This document shows positions 5,912-64,000 of a stretch of 64,000 nucleotides of DNA, piece by piece. The position numbers were made by a program, and so were the translations under genes. Source of the stretch: an uncultured delta proteobacterium (GTDB taxonomy: Bacteria; Myxococcota; Myxococcia; Myxococcales; Myxococcaceae); the NCBI GenBank assembly GCA_963771175.1, contig CAVYSY010000021.1:96001-160000 (forward strand). Reading direction: 5' to 3'. Each line of letters starts with the position of its first letter. Positions within the stretch are counted from its first letter, which is position 1. Below the pieces are notes generated by a model, which did not search any database, had not been told where the DNA came from, and saw nothing but the letters and a program-made list of their open reading frames with translations.

Positions 5912-6031
5912 CGCACACCTCTCAGACTGCCCCGGAGGCCGGGGGCGGTGGGCGTTGCACTCTGGCGCACTCGCGCGCGAGTGGGAATGCACGTGCCGTC
6001 ACGAAGCAATACGTCATACGCTCCGGCGGCC

Positions 6032-6874: not shown

Positions 6875-6899
6875 TCCCAGCGCCGAGGCGCGAGCGCGC

Positions 6900-9534: not shown

Positions 9535-9658
9535 CGGAGGCCTTCCATGATGTGCACGCTGGTGGCGCGGGGCAGGGGGCGCGAGGCGTGTACGGCGGCG
9601 GACGTCCTGCCCCGGGGTCGCTTCCTCGCGGAGGGAGTCGACCCTAGCTGTGTGCGCC

Positions 9659-20769: not shown

Positions 20770-21735
20770 TCAGGCACGAGCGGCGTTGATGCCGGACTCC
20801 ACCGCGTCCACGTCCGCGGCCGCGAGCTGCGGAGCCTCGCCGGTGGGCACATCGAACGGGGCGCGGCCAATCTGCCGCGTGCCGAAGCGCGGGAACAAGG
20901 GCGCCAGCACGTACACGCGGAAGCACCAGCCCAAGAAGTTGCGCTGGTTGAGCACCGGGTTGATCTCCGCGGCGATCTTCGCGTGCGCCTCGCCCAGGGT
21001 GCTCCAGTGCGCGCCCGGCATCTCGTGGTGCACCGCGTGCAGTCCGTTGTTGAAGAGCAGGAAGTTGATGAGCTTGCCGTCGAAGCTGCGCGAGTGGTCG
21101 TGCTCGCTCCAGGGGTCCGTGTGGACGTGCTGGATGTAGTTGAAGAACATGATGGTCCACAGCGCGAAGAGCGCCGGGATGAGGAAGGCGAAGCTCCACA
21201 CCTTGATGCCCGCCGCCACCCCGTGCCACGCGATGGCCAGGCCCAGCAGTGCCAGGTGCAGGCCGGCCCACATCACGTACTGCATGATGATCTGCCGGTA
21301 GAGCGGGGGGTTGGACTGCTTGGCCTTGCGGATGTACTGCTTGATGGGATCGCTCTGCCAGTAGGACGAGACGAAGAAGTACGTGAAGGCCACCCACCAG
21401 TTGTGCTTGTTCGTGTAGCGCCAGGTGATGGTGGCGTCGCCCGGCTTGTTGACGAACTTGTGGTGGTTGAGGTTGTGCGTCGGCACCCAGGCGAAGGTGG
21501 GGTAGCCGTAGAAGTGCGAGATCCAGTAGCCCATGACCGTGTTCATCCGCCGGTTCTTGAACGTGGGGCTGTGGTTGTGGTTGTGCGCGATGACGCCCGC
21601 GCTCAGCGCCAGGTAGCACCCGAGCGGGCTGAGGTAGGGGATGAGGCCCGGGTTGACGTACTGCGCCATCGCCACGATGGGCATGGCGAGGCACCACAGC
21701 AGGGTCCTGTAATCGGCGGTGTAGCGGAGGCTCAT
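20770..21735 (-). CDS. Membrane fatty acid desaturase-family protein
   Basis: His boxes HNHNH, HNLNHH, NYIQH and HAVHH; hydrophobic segments. Confidence 0.9.
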   Translation of the reverse strand: MSLRYTADYRTLLWCLAMPIVAMAQYVNPGLIPYLSPLGCYLALSAGVIAHNHNHSPTFKNRRMNTVMGYWISHFYGYPTFAWVPTHNLNHHKFVNKPGDATITWRYTNKHNWWVAFTYFFVSSYWQSDPIKQYIRKAKQSNPPLYRQIIMQYVMWAGLHLALLGLAIAWHGVAAGIKVWSFAFLIPALFALWTIMFFNYIQHVHTDPWSEHDHSRSFDGKLINFLLFNNGLHAVHHEMPGAHWSTLGEAHAKIAAEINPVLNQRNFLGWCFRVYVLAPLFPRFGTRQIGRAPFDVPTGEAPQLAAADVDAVESGINAARA

Positions 21736-21910
21736 GGCCTCTCAGGCTATCCCGGCCCGTTTTGGGGGTCCTAGAAATCTTTCCGAAACAGAACACTAGC
21801 CAACAGAGCACTGGTCAACAGCTCACGGACCCCCGCTGTCCGAGCGAGCAGGTGGCCTGAACGCTGGAGCAGGAGAGCGTGCCTATCATCGACCTGAGAG
21901 GGCGTGGCGT

Positions 21911-22231
21911 ATGGCACACATCCCTGTTCCCCCGAGCCGAGGCGCCACCGTGCGCAGCTCGCTGGAGGCCGAGCTCTCCACGGCGCCGGAGACGGGCTAC
22001 ACCGCCAGGGAGCTCTCGGCCCGGGTGGGCATCTCCGAGAAGGACGTGGCCGGGCACCTGGAGCACCTGGAGAAGTCCCTCAAGGCCGGAGGCGCCGCGC
22101 TGGAGGTCATTCCCGCCGAGTGCCTCGCCTGCGGCTTCGTCTTCCGGGAGCGCAAGCGCCTCACCCGGCCCGGCTCCTGCCCCGAGTGCCGCTCCACCCG
22201 CATCGACCCGCCCGCCTTCCGCATCCGCTGA
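21911..22231 (+). CDS. Winged-HTH + zinc-ribbon transcriptional regulator
   Basis: TARELSARVGISEKDVAGHLEHL HTH; CLACG...CPEC ribbon. Confidence 0.85.
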   Translation: MAHIPVPPSRGATVRSSLEAELSTAPETGYTARELSARVGISEKDVAGHLEHLEKSLKAGGAALEVIPAECLACGFVFRERKRLTRPGSCPECRSTRIDPPAFRIR

Positions 22232-22237
22232 AGCCCG

Positions 22238-22277
22238 CAAAAGAGAAGCGGCGGGAAGCCCGAGGCTCCCCGCCGCT
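22238..22277 (-). terminator. Terminator hairpin between convergent genes (after hppA)
   Basis: AGCGGCGGG...CCCGCCGCT stem followed on the minus strand by TCTCTTTT. Confidence 0.7.
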
Positions 22278-22311
22278 CGTCACTGCTCCAGGCCCTGGGG
22301 GCCGGGTGTGA

Positions 22312-24821
<2,510 letters not shown>

Positions 24822-24989
24822 GGGGTTGCAACTCCTCAGCAATGAGAGTGTCGAGGGGTTGGCCGCCTGCGGACGGGAGTGCCGCACGCAGACGCTTCAG
24901 CGCAGCCTCGCCCTTCAGGACCGAGAGAGCGTGCCTGAAGGCACTCTGCGTGTACCACGCCCCAGGTGGGGAAGTCGAATTCCCGGAAA

Positions 24990-49989: not shown

Positions 49990-50334
49990 GCGGGTCCTGC
50001 TGAACCAGGTTTCCCTCCTCATCAGAGGGCCGGGGTGTGGGTCCATGGACTCCACCCGCGGCCCTCTTCAATTTTCTGATCCAGCGGAACGCGGGGCCCA
50101 CCCGGACACCGGAGTGAAGGGGCATGTGCCGCCACCTCCCCCCGTGCCGCAGAGGGCCCCACCCTCCCGGAAGTTGGAGCCGAATGACGGGCGGTGAACG
50201 GCTCGGGGGCGTGGCGCGTCCTCCGAGTGCCCTCGGGTGGACGTTCATCACGTCCGGCGGCGAAGAGCACTCACCAATGCGCCCCCCCGTGCCCATACCG
50301 AGCACGCAACCAGGGAGATGGGGGAGGTGCCGGC

Positions 50335-53300
50335 ATGGCCACATACCGACTCATCCGCAAGATCGCGGCAGGCGGAATGGCGGAGGTGTTCCTGGCCAAG
50401 GTGGTCGGGGCCGAGGGCTTCGAGAAGCCAGTCGCCGTCAAGCGCGTGCTGCCGTCGATGGTGCAGGACCGGGAGTTCGTGGAGCTCTTCCTGCGCGAGG
50501 CCAAGCTGACGGTGTGCCTGCAGCACGCCAACGTGGTGCAGGTGTTCGACCTGGGCGCCCTCAACGGCCAGTACTACATGGTGATGGAGTTCGTGGACGG
50601 GGAGAACCTCCGGGCCGTGCAGCGCGGCGCGGCGTCCCACCAGGTGGCGCTGGGGCTGCGCGAGGTGTGCTTCATCGTCCAGCAGGTGACGGAGGGCCTG
50701 GCGTACGCGCACGGGCGCTCGGACGCCGCGGGCCGGCCGCTCAACATCATCCACCGCGACGTCAACCCGTCCAACGTGATGGTGGCCAGCAGCGGCGAGG
50801 TGAAGCTGGCGGACTTCGGCATCGCCAAGGCGGCCAACGCGCAGAACGCCACCCAGGTGGGCGTGGTGAAGGGCAAGGCGGGCTACCTCGCGCCGGAGCA
50901 GGTGAAGGGCCTGGAGGTGGACCAGCGCGCGGACCTCTTCCTCATCGGCTTGATGCTGTACGAGCTGCTCGCCGGCAAGCAGCTCTTCGGCGGCTCGGAC
51001 TACTTCGCCACGCTGCGCAACATCGCCCAGTTCGACGTGAAGAGCCTCGCGCCGGTGCCGGGGGTGCCTCCGGCGCTCTGGGGCATCGTCACCCGGGCGC
51101 TGGCGGAGAACCCCACGGCGCGCTTCCAGCGGGCGCGCGACATCTCGGACGCGCTGCAGAACTTCCTCTTCGACCACCGGCTGCGCGTGGGCCCGCAGGA
51201 CGTGGCGGCCCTCTTCGCTCGCTGCTTCCCCGAGCGCCGCTCGCCGCTGGAGGGCGAGAGCGAGGTGCGGGGCGAGGAGATCCACCTCGGCTCGGACGCG
51301 GGGCTGCAGCGCCCGCAGACGCTCACCTCGGTGCGCTCGCGCCCGCCGTTCCCCGGGGGAACCCGTCCGGGCACGCCCTCGATGCGCGTGAGGGCCCTGA
51401 CGGACCCGGGCCGGATGCAGCCTCCGCCTCCGCCGCCGGCGACGTCCCTGACCATGCAGGTGCCTCCGCCTCCGGGCGGGCGCGCGGTGACGCAGGCGGG
51501 CGTGGGCTCCGCCGCCACCATGACGGTGCCTCCGCCTCCGAGCGCGCGCGTGGCGTCAGGGGGGGCCTCCTCCATCGCCATGCCGGTGCCCACGCGCGTG
51601 ATGCGTGCGCCGCGCCGCAAGCTGGGCGAGATGCTGGTGGCCGCCGGCAAGCTGTCGGAGACGCAGCTCAAGGGCGCGCTGGAGCGGCAGAAGCGCACCG
51701 GCGGGCGCATTGGCGAGCTGCTCGTCGCCGAGGGCCTCATCACCGAGGAGGACGTGGTCCGGATGCTGAGCGAGCAGGGCGGCATCCCCTTCGTCTCGGA
51801 CAAGGTGCTGCGCACGATGCCGGTGCCCAAGGCGCTGCTGCCGCTGCTGCCGCTGGAGAAGGCCGAACGGCTCGAGACGGTGCCGGTGGCCCAGCAGGGC
51901 AAGGAGCTGGTGTGCGCCATGCGCGAGCCGCGCGACCTGGCCCGGCTGGACGAGCTGAAGTTCGTCACCGGCAGCCCCGTGCGCGGCATCTATGCCACCG
52001 AGGGCGCCATCCGCCGCGCCATCGGCCGCTTCTACCGGGGGGATGACCCGGACCAGCTGGACGACTGGTCCAACTCCATGCCGCTGGCGGGCTCGGAGTC
52101 GGAGGCGGGCGTCACGCCCTACGCCGACAAGCACACCCGCACGCGCGAGCGACTGCTGGACGAGTCCGCCTTCGAGGAGGTGAAGGCCGTCCCCTCGCCG
52201 CCGCCCGCGCCTCCGCCGCCCGTTCCCGAGCCGGCCCCCGCGCCGCCTCTGACGCTCGCGCCCGCCTCGCTGGCGCGCACCATGCTGGTGGTGACCGACG
52301 ACGTGGAGCTGCGGGACGCGGCGGTGCGGCTGCTCACGCGCCAGGGCGTGGCGGCCTCGGGCAGCAGCGCGGCGGACGTGGAGAAGGCCGTGGCCCTCGG
52401 GGGCACCGAGGTGGCGCTGGTGGCCGCGGACACCATCCCGGATGCACCGGCGGTGGTGGCGCGGTTGATGACGGTGGCGCCCTCCCTGGAGGTGCGCGTG
52501 CTGCCCTCGCTGGCCGAGGCGCTCGGCGGCGAGGCCGGTCCGTTGAGCCGCGCGGCGCGGCTGCACGCGCGGGTGGTGGATGCGGCGCTCGCGGAGCTGG
52601 GCGGGGTGGGAGTGCAGGGCGCCTCGCTCGCCAAGTTGGCCCGGCGCGTGGCGCGCAGGTTGGGCGCGGGGCGCACGGAGGCCGAGCGGGCCTCGGCGGT
52701 GGCCTATGCCCTGGCGCTCGCGGCCTTCCAGGAATCGGAGGAGCGCTTCATCCGTCCCTCGTGCGAGGCGATGCGCGCCATCCTGGGCCGTGACGCGGGC
52801 GAGCTGGCCGACCTCATCGGCGCCTGCACGCGCGACGCTCCGCCGCCGTCCGAGAAGAGCAGCCGGGACACGCTGGCCCTGGCCGCGGCGGTGGCGCTGC
52901 TCGAGGTGGCGGGGACGGCCTCGCCCGCGGCGTCGACCGCGTCTCAGTCGCTCGTCAAGCTGCGCGCCGAGGGGAAGCTTCCCGCGGCGGCCCTGGAAGC
53001 CCTCTCCGCGGAGGTGATGGAGCTGGTGCTGGGCGATGGCATTTCGCACACGGTGGTGCTCGCCGAGCCCAACGCGGCGCGGGCCGCGGCCCTCCAGGCG
53101 CGCTTCCTCGCGGATGGGGTGCGGGTGGTGCTCGCCGACTCCGTGGCCCGGGTGCGCGTGCTGCTCTCGCAGGGCAGTCAGGCGCTGGTGGTGGCCTCGC
53201 GGCTGCCGGACGGAGATGGCGCCGGGCTCACGCGCTCGCTGCGCTCCGCGGCGGATACCGCCTCGCTGCCCATCTTCGTGCTGGCGCCTCCGGAGGACCC

Positions 53301-53463
53301 CGGGTTGGTGGAGGCCGGGCTGGATGCCGGCGCGGATGACGTCCTCACGTACCCGGTCAATCCAGACGTGCTGGTGGCCAAGCTGCGCCGTTCCCTGCAG
53401 CCGCGCCGGGTCACGGCGACCCCAGCAGCGGTCGTGATGACCCCAGCCTCCGTGAGCGCCTGA
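50335..53463 (+). CDS. Ser/Thr protein kinase with MshEN (GspE-N) domain and receiver-like domains
   Basis: IAAGGMAEV, HRDVNPSN, DFG and APE motifs; KLGEMLVAAGKL...ALERQ / RIGELLVAEGLI...MLSEQ; C-terminal receiver-like LDAGADDVLTYP. Confidence 0.9.
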   Translation: MATYRLIRKIAAGGMAEVFLAKVVGAEGFEKPVAVKRVLPSMVQDREFVELFLREAKLTVCLQHANVVQVFDLGALNGQYYMVMEFVDGENLRAVQRGAASHQVALGLREVCFIVQQVTEGLAYAHGRSDAAGRPLNIIHRDVNPSNVMVASSGEVKLADFGIAKAANAQNATQVGVVKGKAGYLAPEQVKGLEVDQRADLFLIGLMLYELLAGKQLFGGSDYFATLRNIAQFDVKSLAPVPGVPPALWGIVTRALAENPTARFQRARDISDALQNFLFDHRLRVGPQDVAALFARCFPERRSPLEGESEVRGEEIHLGSDAGLQRPQTLTSVRSRPPFPGGTRPGTPSMRVRALTDPGRMQPPPPPPATSLTMQVPPPPGGRAVTQAGVGSAATMTVPPPPSARVASGGASSIAMPVPTRVMRAPRRKLGEMLVAAGKLSETQLKGALERQKRTGGRIGELLVAEGLITEEDVVRMLSEQGGIPFVSDKVLRTMPVPKALLPLLPLEKAERLETVPVAQQGKELVCAMREPRDLARLDELKFVTGSPVRGIYATEGAIRRAIGRFYRGDDPDQLDDWSNSMPLAGSESEAGVTPYADKHTRTRERLLDESAFEEVKAVPSPPPAPPPPVPEPAPAPPLTLAPASLARTMLVVTDDVELRDAAVRLLTRQGVAASGSSAADVEKAVALGGTEVALVAADTIPDAPAVVARLMTVAPSLEVRVLPSLAEALGGEAGPLSRAARLHARVVDAALAELGGVGVQGASLAKLARRVARRLGAGRTEAERASAVAYALALAAFQESEERFIRPSCEAMRAILGRDAGELADLIGACTRDAPPPSEKSSRDTLALAAAVALLEVAGTASPAASTASQSLVKLRAEGKLPAAALEALSAEVMELVLGDGISHTVVLAEPNAARAAALQARFLADGVRVVLADSVARVRVLLSQGSQALVVASRLPDGDGAGLTRSLRSAADTASLPIFVLAPPEDPGLVEAGLDAGADDVLTYPVNPDVLVAKLRRSLQPRRVTATPAAVVMTPASVSA

Positions 53464-53772
53464 GGTTCGATGTCTGGCGTCTGCTTTTGACCGCCGCGGT
53501 GCTCCGTGTAGAGAATTCCTCTCAGCGTGCGGGGAGAGTCAGGAAATGTCCTGGCTCTCCTCGAAGCGCTGACTTCACTCCCTCCTCGCTGCTTTCCCGC
53601 TATTCGCAACTCGATCGCTCGGCTCGTGCGAGCTGTCGCGGTGGTGCGACCACCGCTCATAGACTGCCACACGAGATAAGCTTTATGTATTGAGCAAATG
53701 AGTCGCCGCGGGGGAGGGCATGCCGTTCTGCATGGAACGGAGCGCCCCCCCTGCGTCTTCAGAGGAGGAGAT

Positions 53773-55546
53773 ATGCGGAACGGTCTCGCTGGAACGCTCA
53801 TCACCTCGGGACGTGAGCGGCTGACAGCGCTCGCGAGAGTGCTGGGCTTCGACGCGTCATCCACCCGGGCGATGCAGGAAGTCTTTCTCACCCTCGCATC
53901 GAGCTGGCGAGACCTGCCAGCCGGTGGTGCTCCTCCCTGGCCCTCGGACGTGTGTGACGACCACTCGCCCTTCGAGCTGTCCATCGCGCTCGACGCCGAG
54001 GGGCCGCAGCTTCGCGTGCTGGTGGAGCCGATGGACGCGTCGCCCTCGCTCCACTCCAACCGGGCCGCGAGCCTGCGCCTGCACGAGGAGCTCGAGCGCA
54101 CCCAGGGCATCAACGTCGAGCGGCTGCGCGCGCTGGAGTCGCTGCTGATGCCGGAGGATGCGCAGGGCCGGTTCGTCGCGTGGCACGCGGCGGCGTTCAG
54201 CCCGGGGCAGCCGGTGGACTTCAAGGTGTACTTCAACCTGCTGGCCCACGGCGCGGGTCGCGCGGCCCCGCTCACCCAGGAGGCGCTGGACCGGATTGGC
54301 TTCCACAAGGCCTGGTCCACGGTGGCCGAGGTGCTGGGACGCCGCGAGGAGGGACTGGACCAGGTCGTCTACTTCGCGCTCGACCTGTCCTCCCGCGGCG
54401 AGGCGCGGGCGAAGCTCTACTTGCGCCATCTCCAGCCGACCGCGGCTTTCCTCGAGGAGGTGTGCGCGGTGGCTCGCCACCACCAGCCGGGAGTCGTCTC
54501 CGAGTTCTGCCGCCAGATGGCTGGCGGCGACGAGGGCCCCTACATTGGCAAGGGACCGGTGACCTGCTTCAGCTTCACGGACCCGTCGGATGCTCGACCC
54601 AAGGCGGTGACGGCCTACTTCCCCGTGTCGCACTACGCGCGCGACGACCAGGAGATCCGCCAGCGGCTCACCGACTACCTGAAGGAGCAGGACCTCGCCA
54701 CGGCCCCCTACCTGGCGGCGCTCGAGGCCTGTGCTCGCCGTCCGCTGGAGGCGGGCGCGGGCATCCAAACCTATGCCGCGGTGCGGTGGCAGGGAAAGCC
54801 CCGCGTCACCGTGTACTTCTCGCCGGAGACCTACGGGATGATGGAGCAGCGGAGCGAGGCCCCCATGACGCAGGAGACCCGGCCGGCGACAGGGATTGTC
54901 GACCACTTCGAGGCGCACTCCCTCTCGGACCATCCGTTCTTCGCGCGGATGCGCCACGAGCCGGTGCGGCTGGAGGTGCTGGCGCGCGTGCTGGCCAACT
55001 TCCGCGTGGGCATCACCCGGGAGTTCCCGCGCCGGCTGGCGTGGCTCACCGCGCGCGTGGGGGATGAGCGCATCCGCAGCGTGCTGGCCAAGCAGCTCAA
55101 CGACGAGCTGGGCGATGGGGACTTCACTCGCGCCCACCGGGGGCTCTTCGAGCGCATGTTCGAGGTACTCGCGCCCTGGGCTCCGCCGGGGACGGAGGAG
55201 ATGCTCGCACCGGGCTTCGCGCTCGGAGAGGGAGCTGGAGCGCTGCTACGTGACGGCCGAGCCGTACGAGGGCGTGGGCGCGAGCCTCGTGGTCGAGGTC
55301 TACGGCAAGCAGGTGGACACGATCATCGCGGAGCAGTTCCGCCGCCAGACGGAGATTCCCCCCTCGGCCCTCGAGTGGCTGCACCTGCACGAGACCCTGG
55401 AGGTGGAGCACGCCGGGGAGGCGATGGACATCGCGCGGCTCATCCCCTCCGGCCCGGGCAGCGAGGCCGCATGGCGCGGGGCGAAGGCCGTCGCCATCGC
55501 GTCTCGTGCCTTCTTCGACGCCCTCTACCGCCAGTGCTACCCATGA
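53773..55546 (+). CDS. DMATS-type (ABBA) aromatic prenyltransferase fused to a heme-oxygenase-like diiron (CADD/PqqC-like) domain; one frameshift near 55230
   Basis: AGGAGG RBS. Prenyltransferase: WPSDVCDDHSPFELS, LRVLVEP, FKVYFN, YFALDL...RAKLY, RVTVYFSP. Diiron domain: HPFF...NDELG...AH...VVEV...HLHETLEVEH, ending in an ATGA overlap with the next gene. Confidence 0.8.
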
Positions 55547-56688
55547 GCGCTCTCGACTTCGGCGCGCTGCGCGCCCGCTTCCCCATCTTCTCCGAGCGCA
55601 CCTACTTCGCCACGCAGTGCCTCGGCCCCATGCCCGCCGAGGCGTATGCGGACCTGTTCGAGTACGCCCGGACGCTGGGGCTGCGCAATCGCTCCATTCC
55701 GCTGTGGCTCGAGCGCATGGCCGAGCTCATCGGCCTGCTGGAGCAGTTGCTCGGCGCGGAGTCGGGCTCGGTGGCGCTTCGGGAGAGTGCCACCGCGGCA
55801 CAGGCGGCCATCGCCTCCGCGGTGACGCCCCGGCCGGAGCGCAACCGCATCCTCTACAGCGCCATCGACTTCCACTCCTCGCGCTACCTGTGGTCCGCGC
55901 AGGCGCGGCGCGGCTTCTCCGTCGAGGAACTGCGGCCCGAGGACGGGGTGTCGCTGCGGCCCGAGGACGTGCTCCGGCACCTGGACGAGCGGGTGGCCAT
56001 CGTGGCGCTGTCGCTGGTGTCGCCGCGCACCGGGGCGCTCCTGGATGTCGTCCCGGTGGTGAAGGCGGCGCATGACGCGGGGGCCCTCGTGGTGCTCGAT
56101 GCGTATCAGGCCGTGGGCGTGGTGCCCGTGGACGTGCGGCGGCTCGGAGCGGACGTCGTGGTCGGTGGCACCCACAAGTGGCTGGGCGGAGGCGGCACCG
56201 GGCTCGCCTTCCTGTACGTGCGGCCCTCGCTGGCCGAGCGGCTCCAGCCGGCCTACCCGGGGTGGATTGGCCACCGGGAGATGGTCGGGTTCGCGGAGCG
56301 CTACGAGCCCGCACCGGGAGGCGCGCGCTTCCAGCAGGGGACGCCCGCCATGGAGCCCATCTACACGGCGCGCGCGGGCCTGCGCTTCGTGCTGGAGACG
56401 GGCGTGGAGCGGCTGCGGGCGCGCAACGTGGCGCTCACCACCCGGATGATGGCCCGGGCGCTCGACGCGGGGCTCTCGGTGAAGACGCCGCACGAGCCCG
56501 AGCGGCGCGGCGGGATGCTCTGCTTCGACATGGAGGACGGCTCCTCGGTCGTCGAGCGGATGGCGGCGCTCGGCATCGACATCGACACCCGGCCGGGCGC
56601 GGGCATCCGCGTCTCGCCCCATCCCTGCAACACGGAGCAGGAGTGCGACCGCGTCATCGACGAGCTCGCGCGCCTGACACGGCGATGA
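55543..56688 (+). CDS. Class V PLP-dependent enzyme, kynureninase-like
   Basis: LRARFP...YFATQCLGPMP, VLDAYQAVG, GGTHKWLGGG (PLP Lys), PGWIGH, RFQQGTP, RRGG and IRVSPH motifs. Confidence 0.82.
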   Translation: MSALDFGALRARFPIFSERTYFATQCLGPMPAEAYADLFEYARTLGLRNRSIPLWLERMAELIGLLEQLLGAESGSVALRESATAAQAAIASAVTPRPERNRILYSAIDFHSSRYLWSAQARRGFSVEELRPEDGVSLRPEDVLRHLDERVAIVALSLVSPRTGALLDVVPVVKAAHDAGALVVLDAYQAVGVVPVDVRRLGADVVVGGTHKWLGGGGTGLAFLYVRPSLAERLQPAYPGWIGHREMVGFAERYEPAPGGARFQQGTPAMEPIYTARAGLRFVLETGVERLRARNVALTTRMMARALDAGLSVKTPHEPERRGGMLCFDMEDGSSVVERMAALGIDIDTRPGAGIRVSPHPCNTEQECDRVIDELARLTRR

Positions 56689-57767
56689 GTGGCGCGACGC
56701 TCGATTTCCGAGGCGAGCCGGTGCCGTGTACGCCGGCCACCCTCCAACTGCTCGCCTGCGCGCCGCTGTTGGGCTCGGTGCTCGGCGCGGCGGTGGACTC
56801 GAGGCTCTTCGACCATCTGGCGGAGGGCGCGCTCGACGCCGAGGGACTGGCCACCCGCGCGGGCATCTCCGTGGACGGGGCGCGGCGTCTCCTCACGGCG
56901 CTCGTGGCGCTCGGGCTCGTCGAGCAGGAGCCGGGTCCGCGCTTCCGCAACGGTCCCCTGGCGGCTGCGGCGCTCACTTCCGGAGGGGAGGACTCACTCG
57001 TGCCGTTCCTCCTCCACCAGCGCCGTCACGTCGACTCGCTCTTCGCGCACCTGGACGAGGGCGTGCGCACGGGTCGGCCCCAGTTCGAGCACTGGCCATT
57101 CGTCGACCCCGCGCGCCGCGCCGGGGACCCGTACTCGGAGCTGGTCCAACACCCGGAGGAGTACGCGCTCCTCATGCGGGCCATGGACAGCGCGAGCCGT
57201 GGGGTAGGGCGTGTCATCGCCGAGCAGGTGGACTTCTCCGAGGTGCACCGGCTCGTGGACCTCGGGGGCGGCGGAGGACAGGTGGCCATCGAGCTGGCGC
57301 AGGCGGTGCCGCACCTGTCCATCGAGCTCGTCGACACGCCGCCCGCGCGGGCCCATGCCGCCGGGCGCATCGAGCGCGCCGGGCTCTCCGAGCGCATCCG
57401 CTGCACGACGGCGGACCTTCGCGAGGACCTGAGCGGCTCCCTCGCGCTGGCCGATGCGGTGCTCCTGTCGGGGGTGATTGGTGACTTCGTGGCGGAGGAG
57501 CGCGCCCGCGTCCTCGCGCGAGCGGTGCGCCTGCTGCGCCCGGGGGGGCTGCTGCTCGTGAGCGAGACACTGTTCCACCCCGAGCGGCGGGGCCCCCTGC
57601 TGCCCGCGCTCCTGTCGCTGTTCATGCTGCTCAGCACCGGGGGCGACAACTTCACGCCGGAGGAGATGGAAGGGATGCTCCGTACGGCGGGCCTGTCGGA
57701 CATCCGCCTCTTCTTCAACGGCGCGCGGGGCCTGCGGGACCTCGCGGTGGCTCGCCGTCCGGGCTAA
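56685..57767 (+). CDS. SAM-dependent methyltransferase (methyltransf_2 type with N-terminal dimerisation domain)
   Basis: wHTH dimerisation region (LFDHL...RLLTALVALGLV); LVDLGGGGG; LRPGGLLLVSE; ATGA overlap with the upstream gene. Confidence 0.88.
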   Translation: MSGATLDFRGEPVPCTPATLQLLACAPLLGSVLGAAVDSRLFDHLAEGALDAEGLATRAGISVDGARRLLTALVALGLVEQEPGPRFRNGPLAAAALTSGGEDSLVPFLLHQRRHVDSLFAHLDEGVRTGRPQFEHWPFVDPARRAGDPYSELVQHPEEYALLMRAMDSASRGVGRVIAEQVDFSEVHRLVDLGGGGGQVAIELAQAVPHLSIELVDTPPARAHAAGRIERAGLSERIRCTTADLREDLSGSLALADAVLLSGVIGDFVAEERARVLARAVRLLRPGGLLLVSETLFHPERRGPLLPALLSLFMLLSTGGDNFTPEEMEGMLRTAGLSDIRLFFNGARGLRDLAVARRPG

Positions 57768-57822
57768 GCCATCAGAAGCAAGTCGGTGCAGGGGGGACCG
57801 CCGGGCGCGCGCTCGCGCAACT

Positions 57823-57938
57823 GGTCCGAGGGTCGGACCCGTTCGTGAGGAGCGCGCCCGGGAGGCAGGAGGGGGTCGGCGGACAGAGGACCCTCCGGGC
57901 TCGGTTTCGAAAAACCTGTCCGACAGTCGGACAGGTTT
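57823..57938. repeat. Two palindromes sharing the core GTCCGA-N3-TCGGAC
   Basis: GGTCCGA-GGG-TCGGACC (57823-57839) and AAACCTGTCCGAC-A-GTCGGACAGGTTT (57912-57938). Confidence 0.75.
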
Positions 57939-58149
57939 CTGAAAAGTGTGGCCGGAAGGCCGGTGGGTGCCGGTCGTCGCCCCTGAAGGGACCTACTTCC
58001 GATGGCTTAGCCGGGTGGGGGGCCTGCCCGCTTGTATGAACTCCACTCGCTGAGTAACCCCGCTGCCGCAACTTGCGAAGCCGAGCATCACCTGGGGGAG
58101 GCTCTCGGGCGGCAACACGCCCCTGAGCCCCCCTGCGCCGGTCCGGGTG

Positions 58150-58587
58150 CTACTTCCCGACGCGGGCGTAGCTGCCCTTGAGGGTCACGCCCACCACGAA
58201 GGAGCCGGCGTGGCACTCGAACTCCGTGGTGCTCTTGAACTCGCTCTTCTTGTAGTAGCTGACGATGCCGACCACCGCGTTGGCGCCCTTCTTCTTCGCG
58301 GTGTCCTGCAGCGAGATGAGCACCGACAGTGCCGCCCACTTGCAGCCGAACTCGTCGGACTTGCCCAGGCTGTTGGTCTTCTTGTTGCTCACCCCCTCAC
58401 CGAGGGTCTCGACCACGGCCGGCGTCTTCGCTCCCGCGAGGTAGAACGCCACGGACTTGTCCAGCTTGCCCTTCGCCTCCGGCATCGCGAGGACGTCGGC
58501 CAGCTTGATTTTGTAGACCGTGTCGCGCGCCAGGGCCGGCGTCGCGAACGTCACGGCCAGAATGGACATGGCCATCCACTTCTTCAT
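58150..58587 (-). CDS. Small secreted protein typical of aryl-polyene cluster ends (often mislabelled 'excinuclease ATPase subunit')
   Basis: Signal peptide ALA-RDT; SNKKTN...KSDEFGCKWA, GANAVVGIVSYYK and FECHAG motifs. Confidence 0.8.
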   Translation of the reverse strand: MKKWMAMSILAVTFATPALARDTVYKIKLADVLAMPEAKGKLDKSVAFYLAGAKTPAVVETLGEGVSNKKTNSLGKSDEFGCKWAALSVLISLQDTAKKKGANAVVGIVSYYKKSEFKSTTEFECHAGSFVVGVTLKGSYARVGK

Positions 58588-58600
58588 CGTTGTCCCTCCC

Positions 58601-59839
58601 CTAGTCCCAACGGCGGAACACCAACGAGGTGTTGATTCCGCCGAAGGCGAAGTTGTTGCTCATGACGAGGTCCGTCTGGATGTTGCGACCCTCGCCGGTG
58701 ATGTAGTCCAGCGGCGCGCAGCGCGGGTCCACCGAGCCCGGCTCGAGGTGGAGCGTCGGCGCGAACCAGCCCGAGCGCATCATCTCGATGGTCATCCAGG
58801 CCTCGAGCGCACCGCAGGCGCCCAGGGTGTGCCCCAGGTAGCTCTTGAGCGAGCAGAAGGGGACCCGCTTGCCGAACACGCTGTGGGTGCCGGCCGTCTC
58901 GGCGATGTCGCCGTGCTCGGTGGCGGTGCCGTGGGCGTTCACGTAGCCGATGTCCGCGGGGGACACCCCCGCGTCCTCCAGGGCCAGCCGCATGGCGTCG
59001 GCCATGGTGGGGGCGTTGGGCTGGGTGACGTGTCGGCCGTCGTTGTTGGTGCCGTAGCCGACGACCTCCGCGTAGATGGTCGCGCCGCGCGCACGGGCGT
59101 GCTCCAGCTCCTCGAGCACGAGGGTGCACGCCCCCTCACCGAGCACCAGCCCCGTCCGAGCCGCGTGGAAGGGCCGCGGGGTGAGGTGCGGCGTGTCGTT
59201 GTTCTGGGTGCTGGTGGCGAAGAGGGTGTCGAACACCGCCGCTTCCGTCGCGTCGAGCTCCTCGGCGCCGCCGGCGAGCATCGCCACCTGGCGCCCCATC
59301 TTGATGGCCTCGTAGGCGTAGCCGATTCCCTGGCTGCCCGACGTGCACGCGCTGGAGGTGGTGATGATGCGCCCCGTGATTCCGAAGAAGACGCCGATGT
59401 TCACCGGGGCCGTGTGCGCCATCATCCGGATGTAGGTGGTGGCGGTGATTCCCTCGGTGGTTTTCTCCGTAATCATCCGGCCGAAGTCGGCCATGTTGGC
59501 GGGGGTGCCGGAGGACGAGCCGTAGGCGATGCCCATCTTCCCGCTCTTGAGCAGCGGGTCTCCCAGCAGCCCTGCCGACTGCAGGGCCAGCTCGCTGGCG
59601 CGCGTGGCCAGCAGCGCGACGCGGCCCATGCTCCGCGTGGCCTTGCGGCTGTAGGTCTGGGGGGGGAGCTCGAAGGGGGCAGCGGGCGCGCCCACCCGCG
59701 TGTTCAGGCCCTCGTACACCTTCCACGCGTCCATGGTCTGGACGGCGTTGCGAAGCGACCTCAGCCTCGCCTCCACCGTCTTCCAGTCATGGCCGAGCGG
59801 GCTGATGGCCCCGATGCCGGTGACGACAACCCTCTTCAT
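58601..59839 (-). CDS. Beta-ketoacyl-ACP synthase (ApeR/FabF-like)
   Basis: RVVVTGIG, TSSACTSG, NAHGTAT, KSYLGHTLGA and NNFAFGG motifs. Confidence 0.93.
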   Translation of the reverse strand: MKRVVVTGIGAISPLGHDWKTVEARLRSLRNAVQTMDAWKVYEGLNTRVGAPAAPFELPPQTYSRKATRSMGRVALLATRASELALQSAGLLGDPLLKSGKMGIAYGSSSGTPANMADFGRMITEKTTEGITATTYIRMMAHTAPVNIGVFFGITGRIITTSSACTSGSQGIGYAYEAIKMGRQVAMLAGGAEELDATEAAVFDTLFATSTQNNDTPHLTPRPFHAARTGLVLGEGACTLVLEELEHARARGATIYAEVVGYGTNNDGRHVTQPNAPTMADAMRLALEDAGVSPADIGYVNAHGTATEHGDIAETAGTHSVFGKRVPFCSLKSYLGHTLGACGALEAWMTIEMMRSGWFAPTLHLEPGSVDPRCAPLDYITGEGRNIQTDLVMSNNFAFGGINTSLVFRRWD

Positions 59840-60567
59840 CCGAACAATCCCCCGTTCACGGAGATGACCTGCCGAGTGATGTACGCCGCGTCCTTGCCCA
59901 TGAGGAAGCTGATCGTCGCGGCCACCTCCTCGGGCGTCCCCATGCGCCGGGCGGGAATGAGCTTGAGCGCCTCTTCCACCACGTGCGCCTCCACCATCTC
60001 CGTCTCGATGAGACCGGGGGCGACGCAGTTGACGGTGATTTCCCGGCGGGCCAGCTCGATGGCGAGCGCCTTGGTCGCGCCGATGATGCCGGCCTTCGCC
60101 GCGCTGTAGTTCACCTGCCCCCGGTTGCCCATGAGCCCGGACACGGAGGAGAGGGTGACGATGCGTCCGGGCTTGCGACGCCGGACCATCGGCATCGTGA
60201 GCGGGTTGAGCACGTTGTAGAAGGCGTCGAGGTTGGTGTGGATGACCACGTCCCAGTCCTCGGGGGGCATGGCCGGAAAGGCGTTGTCCCGGGCGATGCC
60301 CGCGTTGCACACCACCCCGTAGTAGCAGCCGTGCTCCTCGACGTCGGCAAGGAGGGCCTGCGCGGTGGCGGCCCGGTCCGCCACGTCGAACTGCAGCACG
60401 CGGCTGCCCCTGCCGAGCTCGCGCATCTGCCCGGCCACCGCCTCGGCCTCCTCGCGCCGGCTGCGGCAGTGGACGACCACGTCGTAGCCATCACGCGCCA
60501 GGCGCAGGGCGACCGCGCGACCGATGCCCCGGCTGGAGCCCGTCACCAGTACCGTGTTGTCACTCAT
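59836..60567 (-). CDS. fabG: 3-oxoacyl-ACP reductase (ApeQ/FabG-like)
   Basis: TGSSRGIG, NAGI, YSAAK and NCVAPG motifs. Confidence 0.9.
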   Translation of the reverse strand: MSDNTVLVTGSSRGIGRAVALRLARDGYDVVVHCRSRREEAEAVAGQMRELGRGSRVLQFDVADRAATAQALLADVEEHGCYYGVVCNAGIARDNAFPAMPPEDWDVVIHTNLDAFYNVLNPLTMPMVRRRKPGRIVTLSSVSGLMGNRGQVNYSAAKAGIIGATKALAIELARREITVNCVAPGLIETEMVEAHVVEEALKLIPARRMGTPEEVAATISFLMGKDAAYITRQVISVNGGLFG

Positions 60568-61007
60568 TCCCCAGCCCCGTCGGGTGGTTCGAACACCGTC
60601 AGTGCGGCGCTCGCCACCGTCTCACCCTCGATGGAGATGGTGCAAGCGAATTGCCCCATGCCGGACTCCGCCCAGAACTCCTGACGGACCTGGATGAGAA
60701 GCCGCTCGCCCGCCCTGAAGACGGGACGGCTGCACGAATAGCGGCGCGTCCCCAGCAGGAAGCCCATCTTCGGCGCTTCTCCGCGCAGCCGGGCATTCCA
60801 TCCGGCCCACGCCCCCACCGTCTGGGCCATGAACTCGATTCCGACCCAGCCCCCCACCCCCCCGTCCCGGAAGAAGAGGCAGTCCTCGCGGATGGTCACC
60901 TCGGCCACCATCCCGGAGTCGTCGGCCTCCAGGGCGCGGTCGATGAGGCGCATGGGGCCGCTGTGCGCCACCAGGTCGGCGAGCGCGTAGTCGACTGGAG
61001 TTCCCAT
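60564..61007 (-). CDS. Hot-dog-fold dehydratase (ApeP-like)
   Basis: LVAHSGPMRLID, GIEFMAQ and GFLLGTR motifs. Confidence 0.88.
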   Translation of the reverse strand: MGTPVDYALADLVAHSGPMRLIDRALEADDSGMVAEVTIREDCLFFRDGGVGGWVGIEFMAQTVGAWAGWNARLRGEAPKMGFLLGTRRYSCSRPVFRAGERLLIQVRQEFWAESGMGQFACTISIEGETVASAALTVFEPPDGAGE

Positions 61008-62200
61008 CAGGCGCGCCCCAGGAGCAGCGCGGCGTTGCTGCCGCCGAACCCGAAGGAGTTGCTCAGCGCATAGCGGGGCGGACGGCCCAGGCTGTAGTCG
61101 GCAGGCACCAGGGCCAGCGCGGGAAGCGCCGGGTCGGGCTCTCCATCCCACCAGTGGGGGGGCAGCAGCCCGGCCGGGTTGTCGGTGAGGGTCAGCCAGC
61201 AGAAGGCGGCCTCCAGTGCGCCCGCGGCCCCCAGGGTGTGCCCGGTGAGCGGCTTGGTGGAGCTGGACGGAACGTCTCCGCCGAGCAGCGCGTGCACCGC
61301 CCGGCTCTCCATCGCGTCGTTGAGGGGCGTGGCCGTCCCGTGGAGGTTGACGTAGTCGACGTCGGCCGGGGCCACGCCTCCGCGCTCCAGCGCCGCCTTC
61401 ATCGCGGCCAGCGCGCCCCGGCCGCCGGGCTCCGGCGCGGAGATGTGGTGCGCGTCGGAGGACTCACCCCAGCCGGCGAGCCGCACCGGCCCCGGCTCCC
61501 GCGTCATCAGGAAGAGGGCCGCGCCCTCGCCGATGTTGATGCCGCGGCGGTGGACGCTCATGGGGTTGCAGCGCGCCTCGCTCACCGACTCGAGCGCGGA
61601 GAACCCGGCGACGGTGAAGCGGCACAGCGAGTCGGCCCCTCCTGCGATGACCGCGTCGCAGACGCCCGCGCGCAGCAGTCGGGCGGCGCTGGCCAGCGCC
61701 TTGGCGCTGGAGGAGCAGGCGGTGGAGATGACGAGGGTCGGCCCCGCCAGGCCGAGCAGCCCACTGAGCGCCATGGCCGGTGAGCCGAGCTCCTGCTGCC
61801 GCAGGTGGAAGGAGGGGGAAAGCGCGCCGTGGGCGGCATGCTCCACCATGGCGGTCTCGCTCTCCCCGATGCCGGAGGTGCTCGTTCCCAGGACGACCCC
61901 CACCCGCTCGGGACCGAAGCGGGCGATGGCCGCATCCACCTCGGAGCGGATGTCCGCCAGCGCGGTGAGCAGCAGCGCGTTGTTGCGGCTGCGCAAGGGG
62001 CGCGCGAGCACCTCCGTGTCGGCCAGCGGCGAGGTGACCTGGCCCACGTGCAGCGTGCGAGCGGCGAAATCGTCGCTCGGGGCCACACCGCTCGGCGCGC
62101 CGGCGAACAGGGCGGCGCGGACCTGGTGCCTGCCCGCTCCCGGGGCGCACACGAGGCCCAGCGCATTGAGGAAGACCGGCCGGTTCATAGGGTCATTCAT
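61007..62200 (-). CDS. Beta-ketoacyl-ACP synthase (ApeO-like)
   Basis: SRNNALL, LGTSTSGI, ISTACSSSAK, NIGEGA, NLHGTAT and SNSFGFGG motifs. Confidence 0.92.
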   Translation of the reverse strand: MNDPMNRPVFLNALGLVCAPGAGRHQVRAALFAGAPSGVAPSDDFAARTLHVGQVTSPLADTEVLARPLRSRNNALLLTALADIRSEVDAAIARFGPERVGVVLGTSTSGIGESETAMVEHAAHGALSPSFHLRQQELGSPAMALSGLLGLAGPTLVISTACSSSAKALASAARLLRAGVCDAVIAGGADSLCRFTVAGFSALESVSEARCNPMSVHRRGINIGEGAALFLMTREPGPVRLAGWGESSDAHHISAPEPGGRGALAAMKAALERGGVAPADVDYVNLHGTATPLNDAMESRAVHALLGGDVPSSSTKPLTGHTLGAAGALEAAFCWLTLTDNPAGLLPPHWWDGEPDPALPALALVPADYSLGRPPRYALSNSFGFGGSNAALLLGRA

Positions 62201-62762
62201 CGGTGTTGCGGCGCGACTGGATGGTCAGCCGGTAGTGCTCCGCCTCATTGCGCAGCTCGGCCCCACCTTCCCAGCGGGGATGGCCATCGTAGCGCACCAC
62301 CACCTTCTTCTGTCCTGCGTAGAGGAGCGCTCGGCTGCCCGGCGAGTCCTCCAGGGTCCAGCCGGGGGGCAGGGCGGCCCGGACACCCTCGGCGGGCCAG
62401 TAGACGAGCTGGATGTCCCGGAGCACCCGGGCCGCCTGGAGCTGGGGGGGGACGAAGGGCGCCCGCTGCTCCTCGAGGCGCTGGCCGTCCCAGAGGAGGG
62501 TGAAGACGCGCTGGCCGAGCGTGAACCCGGCCAGCCGCAGCTGCTCGGCATCGACTTCCAGCAGGGCCTCGAGCGAGCGGGCCCCACCGGCATCCCGGGC
62601 GTGCTCGAACGTCAGCTGCTGCGTGAGGCTCACCGGCTGCCCGAGCCCGGCCGGGGGCAGCCGGAGCTCGGGCAGGGCCTCCGCCTGCGCCGCGGGTCGC
62701 GTCGGACGTGCGGCGCAGGCGGTCAGGGCCAGCAGGGCAGCGGCGGCAATCAGGCGGCGCAC
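62193..62762 (-). CDS. DUF3261-like lipoprotein (ApeN-like)
   Basis: Lipobox LALTAC; QQLTFEH and RVLRDIQLVYWP motifs; overlaps both neighbours. Confidence 0.8.
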   Translation of the reverse strand: MRRLIAAAALLALTACAARPTRPAAQAEALPELRLPPAGLGQPVSLTQQLTFEHARDAGGARSLEALLEVDAEQLRLAGFTLGQRVFTLLWDGQRLEEQRAPFVPPQLQAARVLRDIQLVYWPAEGVRAALPPGWTLEDSPGSRALLYAGQKKVVVRYDGHPRWEGGAELRNEAEHYRLTIQSRRNTDE

Positions 62763-63976
62763 AGCTCTCCGAGCACCTTGAGCCGGCGGCTCTCCGCCAC
62801 GAAGGGGTTGGCCTTGTCCCAGGCGTAGCCCGCGAGGATGGCGGAAATCATCCGGCGGACCTCCGGCGACTGGTTGGGGTGGAAGAGAATCCGCTGGAAC
62901 TCGCCCGTGTACCAGGACTCGACGAAGGCGCGGAACGTGTTGACGCCCTCCTTGAGGGGCTGCGCGTAGTCGCGCTCCCAGTCCACCGCCTCGCCGGCAC
63001 GGCTGCGCTCGAGCGCGGCCACCGCCAGACTGGCCGACTTGAAGGCGATGGTCACGCCCGAGGAGAAGACCGGGTCGAGGAACTCGCCGGCGTTTCCGAG
63101 CAGCGCGAAGCCCCGGCCCCACAGCGACTTCACGTTGGCGGAATAGCCGGTGAGCTTGCGCGCCGGGGTGTCCCACACCGCGTCCTTCAGGAGGGTGGCG
63201 AGTGCGGGCGCCTCGTTGACGATGGTCCGCAGCCGCTCGAGGTCCGTGCCCTGGTACTGCTCGAGGAACTCCCGCCTGGCCACCACGCCCAGCGAGCAAC
63301 GGCCGTTGGAGAAGGGGATGGTCCAGTACCACACGTCCACGTGCTCGGGGTGCACCGAGATGAGAATCTTGTTCCGGTCGAAGATGCCGGGCGCCACCCG
63401 GTCCTCGATGTGGGTGAAGATGGCGCCGCGCACGGGGAAGTTGGACGGCGTCTCCAGTGCGAGCAGCCGCGGCAGGACGCGGCCGAACCCGCTGGCGTCG
63501 AGCAGGAAGTTGGCCTCCACGCCGTAGGTCTCCCCCTCGGGGGAGCGCACCGTCACCCGGGGCTTGTCCCCCTCGAGGTCCACGGCGGTGACCTCGTGCC
63601 GGAAGCGGAGGGTGGCGCCCATCCGCTCGGCGGCCTTGGCGAGGACGTGGTCGAACGTGGCGCGCTCCACCTGGTAGGTGGTGCCCCAGCCCGGCGAGAA
63701 CTTCTCCCGGAAGTCGAACTGCGTGTACGTGCTGCCGCGGGCGAAGGCCGCGCCGTTCTTGAACTGGAAGCCCGCCTCCACCACGTCACGGAGCATGCCC
63801 GCCGCCTCGATGTACTCCATGCTCTGCGGCAGCAGGCTCTCGCCGATGGAGAAGCGCGGGAACTGCTCCTTCTCCAGCATGAGCACCTCGCGCCCGTGCT
63901 TGCGCAGCAGGCCTGCCGCCACCGAGCCAGCGGGGCCCGCGCCGATGACGAGAACATCGGTCCTTTCAGTCTTCAT
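62750..63976 (-). CDS. FAD-dependent oxidoreductase, flavin halogenase-like
   Basis: GAGPAG, FPRFSIGES, GFQFKNGA (Lys), WYWTIP and GNAGEFLDPVFSSG motifs. Confidence 0.88.
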   Translation of the reverse strand: MKTERTDVLVIGAGPAGSVAAGLLRKHGREVLMLEKEQFPRFSIGESLLPQSMEYIEAAGMLRDVVEAGFQFKNGAAFARGSTYTQFDFREKFSPGWGTTYQVERATFDHVLAKAAERMGATLRFRHEVTAVDLEGDKPRVTVRSPEGETYGVEANFLLDASGFGRVLPRLLALETPSNFPVRGAIFTHIEDRVAPGIFDRNKILISVHPEHVDVWYWTIPFSNGRCSLGVVARREFLEQYQGTDLERLRTIVNEAPALATLLKDAVWDTPARKLTGYSANVKSLWGRGFALLGNAGEFLDPVFSSGVTIAFKSASLAVAALERSRAGEAVDWERDYAQPLKEGVNTFRAFVESWYTGEFQRILFHPNQSPEVRRMISAILAGYAWDKANPFVAESRRLKVLGELCAA

Positions 63977-64000
63977 GTTCTTTCCTGGTGAGGAAGGGGT

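Follow-up and report, generated by a model that had tools for sequence, protein, structure and literature searches.

Small prenylated indoles are made in Streptomyces by two-enzyme teams in which a dimethylallyltryptophan synthase (DMATS) works with a single partner, such as IptA with a tryptophanase or SCO7467 with the flavin monooxygenase SCO7468; DMATS-N-oxygenase pairs are likewise known from this genus, and myxobacteria produce prenylated indole-3-carbaldehydes, the indiacens. The actinomycin and sibiromycin pathways start with a heme tryptophan 2,3-dioxygenase (TDO) and feed a nonribosomal peptide synthetase (NRPS), and the Pseudomonas quinolone signal (PQS) is made from kynurenine. Two heme-oxygenase-like diiron oxidases (HDOs), AetD and SktA, are described as turning ring-decorated tryptophan into a nitrile (with an aldehyde as shunt product) or into skatole and cyanide (PMC11611611, PMC11869266), and a fused indole prenyltransferase/tryptophan indole-lyase has been reported to switch on a silent gene cluster (10.1101/2024.02.14.580309). 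Here we describe an operon at positions 53773-57767 of a 64,000-nucleotide stretch of an uncultured delta proteobacterium of the Myxococcaceae (assembly GCA_963771175.1, contig CAVYSY010000021.1, positions 96,001 to 160,000; hereafter the window). It encodes a DMATS fused to an HDO, a kynureninase-like pyridoxal phosphate (PLP) enzyme and a methyltransferase: known enzyme families in a new combination, forming a real, conserved and uncharacterised cassette with a plausible route. Judging from sequence, we tentatively propose, with somewhat less than even confidence, that the operon belongs to a conserved two-gene core (the DMATS-HDO fusion and the PLP enzyme, with an optional methyltransferase) that would make a prenylated small molecule from an aromatic amino acid, L-tryptophan being the likeliest, by way of kynureninase-type cleavage.

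The three genes lie on the plus strand and are joined by ATGA overlaps at 55543-55546 (genes 1/2) and 56685-56688 (genes 2/3). Gene 1 encodes the DMATS-type aromatic prenyltransferase domain (53773..54882, PF11991 63.8 bits, above the cut-off of 25), whose start agrees with homologues, followed by an HDO that is split over two frames. The N-terminal HDO half (54883..55231, frame A, PF14518 29.4 bits) holds the KQLNDELG...H ligand motif, and the C-terminal half (55232..55546, frame B or +1, PF14518 30.1 bits, stop at 55544-55546) holds E(a2) and HxxxExxH. Gene 2 (55543..56688, 381 aa) encodes a class-V (fold-type I), kynureninase-like PLP enzyme (PF00266 129.2 bits; PF22580, KYNU_C, 44.9 bits, cut-off 27), and gene 3 (56685..57767, 360 aa, TAA stop at 57765-57767) a class-I S-adenosylmethionine (SAM)-dependent small-molecule methyltransferase (PF00891 94.3 bits, cut-off 22.3; PF08100 dimerisation domain 43.2 bits, cut-off 25.6). 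A first-pass annotation of the window had recognised these co-oriented genes, both overlaps, a ribosome-binding site and long non-coding flanks, all of which a reading of the sequence confirmed; its domain assignments for the three genes were likewise upheld by Pfam profiles, by sequence matches to solved structures and, for the HDO and PLP parts, by Foldseek.

The fusion and its PLP partner are conserved well beyond the window. With the in-frame part of gene 1 as query, PF11991 and PF14518 fell within one protein of about 560-650 aa in 83 of the 120 homologues listed, and the listed fusions came from Archangium, Myxococcaceae, Polyangiaceae and Kofleriaceae. When one genome per species was scanned, 52 of the 78 loci returned held the fusion, including loci of Chamaesiphon and Nostoc. 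Downstream DNA of 1.3 kb or more is available for 47 fusion loci; 37 of these, spread over Myxococcota and Cyanobacteria, carry a PLP gene 0-168 bp behind the fusion that is 47-96 % identical to that of the window. A lack of co-occurrence in other genomes had been named beforehand as refuting the gene set; these loci display the opposite, in two phyla. Across 401 sampled Myxococcota genomes, seven besides the window's own contain the full-length fusion; PLP orthologues of at least 72 % identity are found in five of those seven, each abutting the fusion and nowhere else. The methyltransferase, which the first-pass annotation had counted as part of a three-gene set, is present in only 12 of the 32 fusion-plus-PLP loci with enough DNA and is therefore accessory; the conserved pathway comprises two genes, not three.

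A quick midpoint-rooted tree gathers the 18 cyanobacterial fusions into one clade (Shimodaira-Hasegawa approximate likelihood-ratio support 100) with a Byssovorax sequence as neighbour. A single transfer from one phylum to the other would fit this placement, though a tree rooted in this way fixes neither the root nor the direction. Greedy clustering of the neighbouring genes also returned long open reading frames (ORFs) in high-GC loci, as clusters 3 and 4; these have no Pfam family and were discarded as spurious. Searches of the main texts of open-access literature found no paper describing a DMATS-HDO fusion or this gene set, in keeping with the first-pass annotation, which did not recognise the set from any characterised cluster. 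The SktA paper gives all AetD-related homologues as being of unknown function (PMC11869266), and term searches found no mention of prenylation or fusions in its main text or in a 2026 review of HDOs.

The prenyltransferase half of the fusion closely resembles bacterial L-tryptophan dimethylallyltransferases. The intact orthologue P0002 matches the solved bacterial tryptophan prenyltransferases 6zry/6zrx, CymD, PriB and 6-DMATS at E values of 3e-44 to 4e-38 over about 340 residues; its residues 17-357 align with 6zry (E 3e-44), placing PFELS opposite PVEFS. The glutamate of this P-x-E-x-S motif is catalytic in DMATS enzymes, and in the fusions it (E68) is invariant in all 16 aligned, as are basic and tyrosine residues across the fusions. 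The window domain thus shares family with the 5-/6-DMATS enzymes (6zrx-6zs0), PriB (5inj), the IptA-type 6-DMATS (7w8u) and CymD (6os3), whose length is about that of its N-terminal 360 residues. Unlike them, it carries a C-terminal diiron oxidase and stays under the TIGR03429 cut-off (123.8 against 163.85 bits). From these relatives, L-tryptophan is the most likely substrate. The Streptomyces prenyl-indole pairs team a DMATS with one PLP lyase or oxygenase, as the window operon does; their partners are a tryptophanase and a flavin monooxygenase, however, and none uses an HDO or a kynureninase-like enzyme.

The HDO half is recognisable chiefly by its fold. Run with phmmer against PDB sequences, the domain had no match at E <=0.01, its 51 stand-alone homologues are unnamed, and the ESM Atlas returned generic names only (for instance 'iron-containing redox enzyme / TenA'). 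The predicted structure (mean predicted local distance difference test score 93.5) has the seven-helix heme-oxygenase-like fold and matches CADD, RohS, HrmI and BesC in Foldseek at probability 1.00. VIA structural alignment ranks HrmI first (Z 23.9; root-mean-square deviation 2.2 over 213 residues, 17 % identity), followed by CADD (22.4), BesC (19.8), and PolF and FlcD (about 19); the Z values of 16-23.9 span 200-216 of the 220 residues and are to be read with the caveat that helical bundles commonly give high Z. All six putative metal ligands are encoded in the window, over the two frames. By likeness to the AetD motif (PMC11611611), E75, H85, E138 and H169-x3-E173-x2-H176 are the candidate ligands, and they are invariant or at least 90 % conserved over 21 aligned domains. 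The loop between E75 and H85 breaks helix alpha-1 in the model.

The window domain therefore has the seven-helix fold (Z 16-24) and the His/carboxylate candidate set in common with HrmI, CADD, BesC, PolF, FlcD, UndA and AetD, but is only 12-19 % identical to any solved member, and no solved HDO that we found is described as being fused to a prenyltransferase. The solved HDOs closest to it act, to judge from their entry titles, on free amino acids (L-lysine, L-isoleucine). Their reactions on these substrates spare the amino-acid end. AetD, which the first-pass annotation had brought in as a parallel, is a more distant relative: its chains align at Z 16.1-17.0 with 12-14 % identity and at rank 33 or lower, behind HrmI, CADD, BesC, PolF, FlcD, PqqC and UndA, and the parallel therefore holds at superfamily level only. 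A closer kinship with AetD had been suggested by a 47 % identical match in Aetokthonos hydrillicola (L045), and was rejected, as that gene lies outside the aet cluster, among genes for a kinase, a regulator, HisG and an acyltransferase; two further matches in the same genome are 28-29 % identical HDOs in unrelated contexts.

Among the 21 aligned domains, we noticed loss of HxxxExxH in one only, the Polyangiaceae fusion L049 (HDO at 9087-9740). This locus also has no PLP gene, keeps a cytokinin-dehydrogenase-like (CKX-like) oxidase and sits on a very long tree branch (1.31).

Gene 2 is closest to kynureninase by both sequence and fold. Its product, 89 % identical over its full length to the homologue P0121, finds Pseudomonas fluorescens kynureninase (1qz9) as its best solved sequence match (E 1e-35 over the full length) and as its top structural match in Foldseek (TM score 0.89, 26 % identity). 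With KynU (1qz9 and the human enzyme 3e9k) it shares the PLP lysine (K212 opposite Lys227), the aspartate (D186 opposite Asp201), the stacking phenylalanine (F110 opposite Phe129), the GWxGH motif and the KYNU_C domain. At the stacking position, kynureninases have Phe and desulfurases His. Tyr226, Trp64 and Arg375 of the Pseudomonas enzyme serve in the substrate pocket or in catalysis; the alignment ends before Arg375, for which the invariant R356 is a candidate counterpart. Models for other PLP enzymes fall well under their cut-offs (SufS 103.6 bits against 475.1, EgtE 61.6 against 400).

Relatives of gene 2 offer a further line of evidence. In the 401-genome sample, an equally short PLP paralogue, 31-41 % identical, occurs at 67 further places. 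Searching the sample with the TDO-like part and comparing coordinates by hand, we found a TDO-like gene on the same contig and strand, within about 2.2 kb and with the paralogue directly downstream, at 41 of these 67; one of the 26 non-adjacent places lies in a genome flagged unpublished (G197). In the one such operon read in detail (L090), a hybrid kinase with three receivers, a receiver, the TDO-like gene (571 aa) and the PLP paralogue (381 aa, 37 % identical) follow one another in order. Such operons resemble that of the window in the length of the PLP enzyme and in having an oxygenase gene directly upstream, and in L090 the paralogue is also preceded by the receiver and the hybrid kinase; they differ in that a heme TDO-superfamily oxygenase with a His/Ala-rich tail takes the place of the DMATS-HDO. 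As far as sequence can tell, these pairs show a recurring logic in which an oxygenase would act on an aromatic amino acid and a short kynureninase-like enzyme would follow. The suggestion in the first-pass annotation that the HDO may stand in for a heme dioxygenase thus gains indirect support, in that the nearest PLP paralogues lie behind a TDO-like gene at most of their places.

The TDO-like gene is present in one of the 12 other sampled genomes of the window's genus and was not found in the window's own genome (G000, 81.7 % complete). The L090 TDO-like protein (5457-7172, minus strand) ends in a tail of about 300 residues that consists almost only of His, Ala and Pro, and tail length varies between genomes (open frames of 327-649 aa). 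In another genome of the window's genus (L089), no TDO-like gene adjoins the PLP paralogue, which instead comes after a Cys/Met-metabolism PLP enzyme and MoaC and lies beside a hybrid kinase (5907-8411, minus strand) with an ethylene-receptor-like N-terminal domain (ETR1_N, 98.8 bits).

Gene 3, where a glycine-rich SAM motif reads LVDLGGGGG, appears to be an ordinary small-molecule methyltransferase of O-methyltransferase family 2 with a dimerisation domain. Its solved relatives are DsyB (7e-30, the best), RedM, ASMT (7e-26), SibL (7e-24) and DnrK, and so include a hydroxyindole O-methyltransferase and an enzyme acting on 3-hydroxykynurenine (SibL). A kynureninase-type enzyme and a methyltransferase also belong to one pathway in actinomycin and in sibiromycin (SibL) biosynthesis. 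Unlike those pathways, the operon has no NRPS gene beside it, in the window or in the loci of eight annotated relatives, and its methyltransferase is dispensable in most relatives.

From these observations we infer a substrate, an order of steps, a chemistry and a product. The DMATS domain would first prenylate tryptophan with dimethylallyl diphosphate. The fused diiron HDO would then oxidise prenyl-tryptophan on the ring or the side chain while leaving the alpha-amino-acid end intact, most likely by an oxidative opening or oxygenation that yields a gamma-oxo function, as the TDO-like heme protein appears to do in the paralogous operons. The PLP enzyme would cut the C-beta/C-gamma bond in kynureninase fashion, releasing alanine and a prenylated anthranilate-type (or related aryl) product, which the methyltransferase, where present, would methylate. 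That the HDO spares the alpha-amino-acid end is argued from the tight linkage of the PLP gene, and the kynureninase kinship together with the TDO-linked paralogues makes C-beta/C-gamma cleavage of an oxidised prenyl-tryptophan our best single guess.

Several observations weigh against this proposal. The PLP gene is missing from 10 of the 47 fusion loci (eight of Chamaesiphon, L014 and L049), so the fusion can work without this partner, or the partner is encoded at a distance. Loci that share descent do not count as independent, and the 18 cyanobacterial rows form a single clade. The first-pass label of a kynureninase-like enzyme is right as to nearest kin by sequence and fold, but the enzyme is not an equivalog: it reaches 88 bits on the kynureninase model TIGR01814 against a cut-off of 246.4, is about 35 residues shorter than KynU at 26 % identity, has His211 and Arg50 where the Pseudomonas enzyme has Tyr226 and Trp64, reads PCN for the kynureninase-type PxYN motif and bears two cysteines, Cys362 and Cys368, that are invariant in the fusion-linked clade and replaced in the paralogues. 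In fold comparisons, cysteine desulfurases and C-S lyases come almost as near (TM 0.84-0.87). In the paralogous operons, the TDO-like protein scores 112.6 bits against a TDO cut-off of 390.7 and its PLP partner 101 against 246.4; both are under the equivalog cut-offs, and the TDO-like/PLP pair is therefore itself uncharacterised. Finally, we saw no gene for a formamidase, and opening of the indole ring is not known for any HDO.

The HDO superfamily is rapidly yielding unexpected oxidative reactions, and at least 83 protein clusters join one to a tryptophan-type prenyltransferase, mostly followed by a kynureninase-like enzyme. Once identified, the product would probably extend the known HDO reactions by a new one, perhaps non-heme ring opening of the kynurenine type, and would bring to light a new family of small prenylated aromatics from myxobacteria and cyanobacteria.

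Whether the window organism itself makes such a product is a separate matter, because gene 1 is broken in the assembly. Alignment of its translation with five full-length homologues shows the frame changing after ...LAPGFALG, and at the DNA level the window reads GGAGAGGGAGCTG where four orthologues read GGCGA-GGAGCTG, one base fewer. The extra G, in GAGGGAG at 55229..55233, shifts gene 1 into the frame of gene 2 and therefore creates a 996-aa chimeric ORF (53698-56688) spanning the DMATS and reaching into the PLP gene. A single-base indel would thus lead annotation of the assembly to a false chimera of about 1000 aa. The first-pass annotation had treated gene 1 as one open frame (53773-55546), which does not survive these alignments; its word 'repaired' for the operon hints at a break that it left unstated.

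Either the pathway is dead in the assembly strain or the extra base is an assembly error. A true mutation would make the operon a pseudogene without a product in this organism, with no bearing on the family. We regard this as a serious contender, if one that falls somewhat short of an even chance: the frameshift is there in the assembly sequence and the genome holds a single copy of the fusion, but the contigs of all three public runs that cover the site (X1, X2 and X3, relatives 98-99 % identical to the window, that is, about 1-2 % different; a further run, X6, does not reach it, and no run from the strain itself was found) each omit one base at 55229-55233. The extra base also falls within a G run of a draft-like assembly (58 contigs, 81.7 % complete), and the operon shows no other damage, genes 2 and 3 aligning over their full length at 87-96 % identity.

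For the family as a whole, we considered an HDO that remodels the amino-acid end of prenyl-tryptophan, in the manner of AetD, SktA or the flavin enzyme SCO7468, to give a prenylated indole-3-carbonitrile, -carbaldehyde, -acetaldoxime or skatole. The PLP enzyme would then be ancillary, serving in tryptophanase-like release of prenylindole or in disposal of a by-product such as cyanide or glyoxylate. AetD and SktA set a precedent on ring-decorated tryptophan (PMC11611611, PMC11869266), and the same pairing of a ring decorator with an HDO recurs with a halogenase in their case, a DMATS here and a biopterin-dependent hydroxylase beside two HDO-only loci (L057 and L062). The indiacens of myxobacteria, the Streptomyces teams of a DMATS with a tryptophanase or an N-oxygenase, the fused indole prenyltransferase/tryptophan indole-lyase and the 10 of 47 fusion loci that lack a PLP gene would also fit. 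This chemistry would, however, destroy the free alpha-amino acid that the PLP enzyme needs, yet the PLP gene is the most tightly linked of all (37 of 47 loci), and that enzyme lies outside the tryptophanase family. AetD is distant by structure, as described above, and the HDO of the Nostoc fusion L065, searched against 301 Nostocaceae genomes, gave three matches at E <=1e-15 (its own genome, the Aetokthonos paralogue and one other), with no halogenase-linked or SktA-like context. We consider remodelling of the amino-acid end unlikely.

Still less probable, in our judgement, is an HDO acting as an N-oxygenase like HrmI or RohS, which would convert the alpha-amine of prenyl-tryptophan, or a freed aryl amine, into a hydroxylamine, nitroso, oxime or nitro group. 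HrmI is indeed the best structural match and RohS is among those listed, but the identity is only 17 %, CADD and BesC are nearly as close, helical bundles are prone to high Z, and no sign of nitro or diazo chemistry appears in the neighbourhood. A sulfur route, in which cysteine captures an oxidised prenyl-indole, the adduct is cut by the PLP enzyme as a C-S lyase of the EgtE kind and the thiol is then S-methylated by the methyltransferase, seems the least credible of all: SufS (3e-18), hercynylcysteine sulfoxide lyase (6e-14) and the EgtE model (5.7e-17) are close by fold and sequence, the two clade-specific cysteines would suit it and the best solved methyltransferase match, DsyB, is an S-methyltransferase, but kynureninase is a much stronger match (1e-35), a Phe occupies the stacking position in place of the His of desulfurases, and the methyltransferase is missing from 20 of the 32 loci.

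The kynureninase-type proposal, which we prefer, says nothing of what the product is for, and here the genomic surroundings are suggestive. With one set of domain queries applied throughout, 30 of 50 fusion loci have a receiver, histidine-kinase or Ser/Thr-kinase match no more than 1.5 kb away, compared with 4 of the 26 loci with a stand-alone DMATS or HDO, and three of the four signalling-flanked control loci are HDO-only. In the window, a gene for a Ser/Thr kinase with MshEN and receiver domains (50194..53463, plus strand; Pkinase 129.8 bits, MshEN 60.5, Response_reg 30.2) directly precedes the operon; an orthologue of it, a 1079-aa ORF, lies upstream of the operon in the nearest genome locus (L004, an Archangium metagenome bin, 90-96 % identical by domain), and receiver-domain matches lie upstream in L001, L002 and L004. 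This kinase gene is likely to be a regulatory or signalling partner. The first-pass description of a self-contained operon is accordingly doubtful, the upstream kinase-MshEN-receiver gene being retained beside the operon in Archangium relatives.

The signalling neighbours differ between the deep clades of the tree. A receiver and a kinase flank the fusion in Myxococcaceae bacterium GXIMD 01537 (L003), and hybrid histidine kinases with three receivers, together with FIST proteins, do so in Polyangiaceae, Sandaracinaceae and Byssovorax. In Chamaesiphon, CBS-PAS-GAF kinases lie upstream and a kinase-AAA-GAF-HisKA-receiver protein of 1800-1950 aa downstream; in Nostoc the flanking genes encode a large AAA-GAF-PAS kinase and a LuxR-type regulator. 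FIST genes occur in six loci, and CKX-like flavin adenine dinucleotide (FAD) oxidases (PF01565 + PF09265) follow the cassette in seven, including L021 and L049. Stand-alone HDOs show related associations: those of L062 and L069 sit amid several hybrid kinases and receivers, and the HDO-only genes of L057 (6199-7122) and L062 (9272-10291) adjoin genes for biopterin-dependent aromatic amino-acid hydroxylases (PF00351, 83-86 bits). In one 381-aa metagenome protein (P0272), a receiver (Response_reg, 85 bits) is fused to an HDO of this clade (PF14518, 64 bits) that is 44 % identical to the query domain. A further homologue (P0106, 812 aa) fuses a DMATS to a CKX-like FAD oxidase (PF01565 + PF09265).

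Since the cassette is wired to adjacent phosphorelay and kinase genes, its product may be a signal, or may be made on a signal. Taken further, both the DMATS-HDO/PLP cassette and its clade's stand-alone HDOs might be enzymatic output modules of phosphorelays or Ser/Thr kinases that make a hormone-like signal from an aromatic amino acid, here a prenylated one. The HDO would perform a new oxidation of the indole nucleus, neighbouring FIST, GAF and PAS proteins would be the receptors, and in some loci the CKX-like oxidase would remove the prenylated signal. We offer this idea as a doubtful though not idle one, on the grounds of the adjacency counts, the kinases that differ between clades, P0272, the FIST and CKX-like genes, and P0106; adjacency to kinases may reflect plain operon regulation only. 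The placement beside sensor kinases, FIST proteins and receivers makes a signalling role directly testable.

The operon proteins are 81-89 % identical to named Archangium proteins, and the window as a whole is GC-rich (GC about 0.70). The 309-bp region upstream of the operon (53464..53772, plus strand, GC 0.63) has no ORF supported by third-position GC (GC3); it contains one sigma-70-like promoter match (53487-53516, plus strand; 0.1 expected), a match to consensus only, and the ribosome-binding site GAGGAGGAG (53762-53770), which precedes the ATG at 53773. Downstream, 382 bp (57768-58149, GC 0.66) are likewise free of GC3-supported ORFs. They hold a 12-bp perfect hairpin (57912..57938, plus strand; folding free energy -36.5 kcal/mol, z -3.16, with 0 of 200 shuffles folding as well) that is a possible terminator; a consensus terminator scan behind the operon made no call, because no T-run follows the hairpin.

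Convergent with the operon is a minus-strand ORF of 145 aa (58150-58587) that has no Pfam family and whose N-terminus, MKKWMAMSILAVTFA..., looks by eye like a signal peptide. Beyond it, still on the minus strand, lie genes for a short-chain dehydrogenase (59836-60567), a beta-ketoacyl synthase (61007-62200) and an FAD-dependent tryptophan-halogenase-like enzyme (62750-64000), the last of which continues past the end of the window; these genes (59836-64000) may form a separate lipid or aryl-polyene-type cluster. Elsewhere in the window, three minus-strand ORFs at 20770-24896 stand out from the remaining sequence by a first-position GC of 0.55-0.60 and a GC3 of 0.94-0.97.

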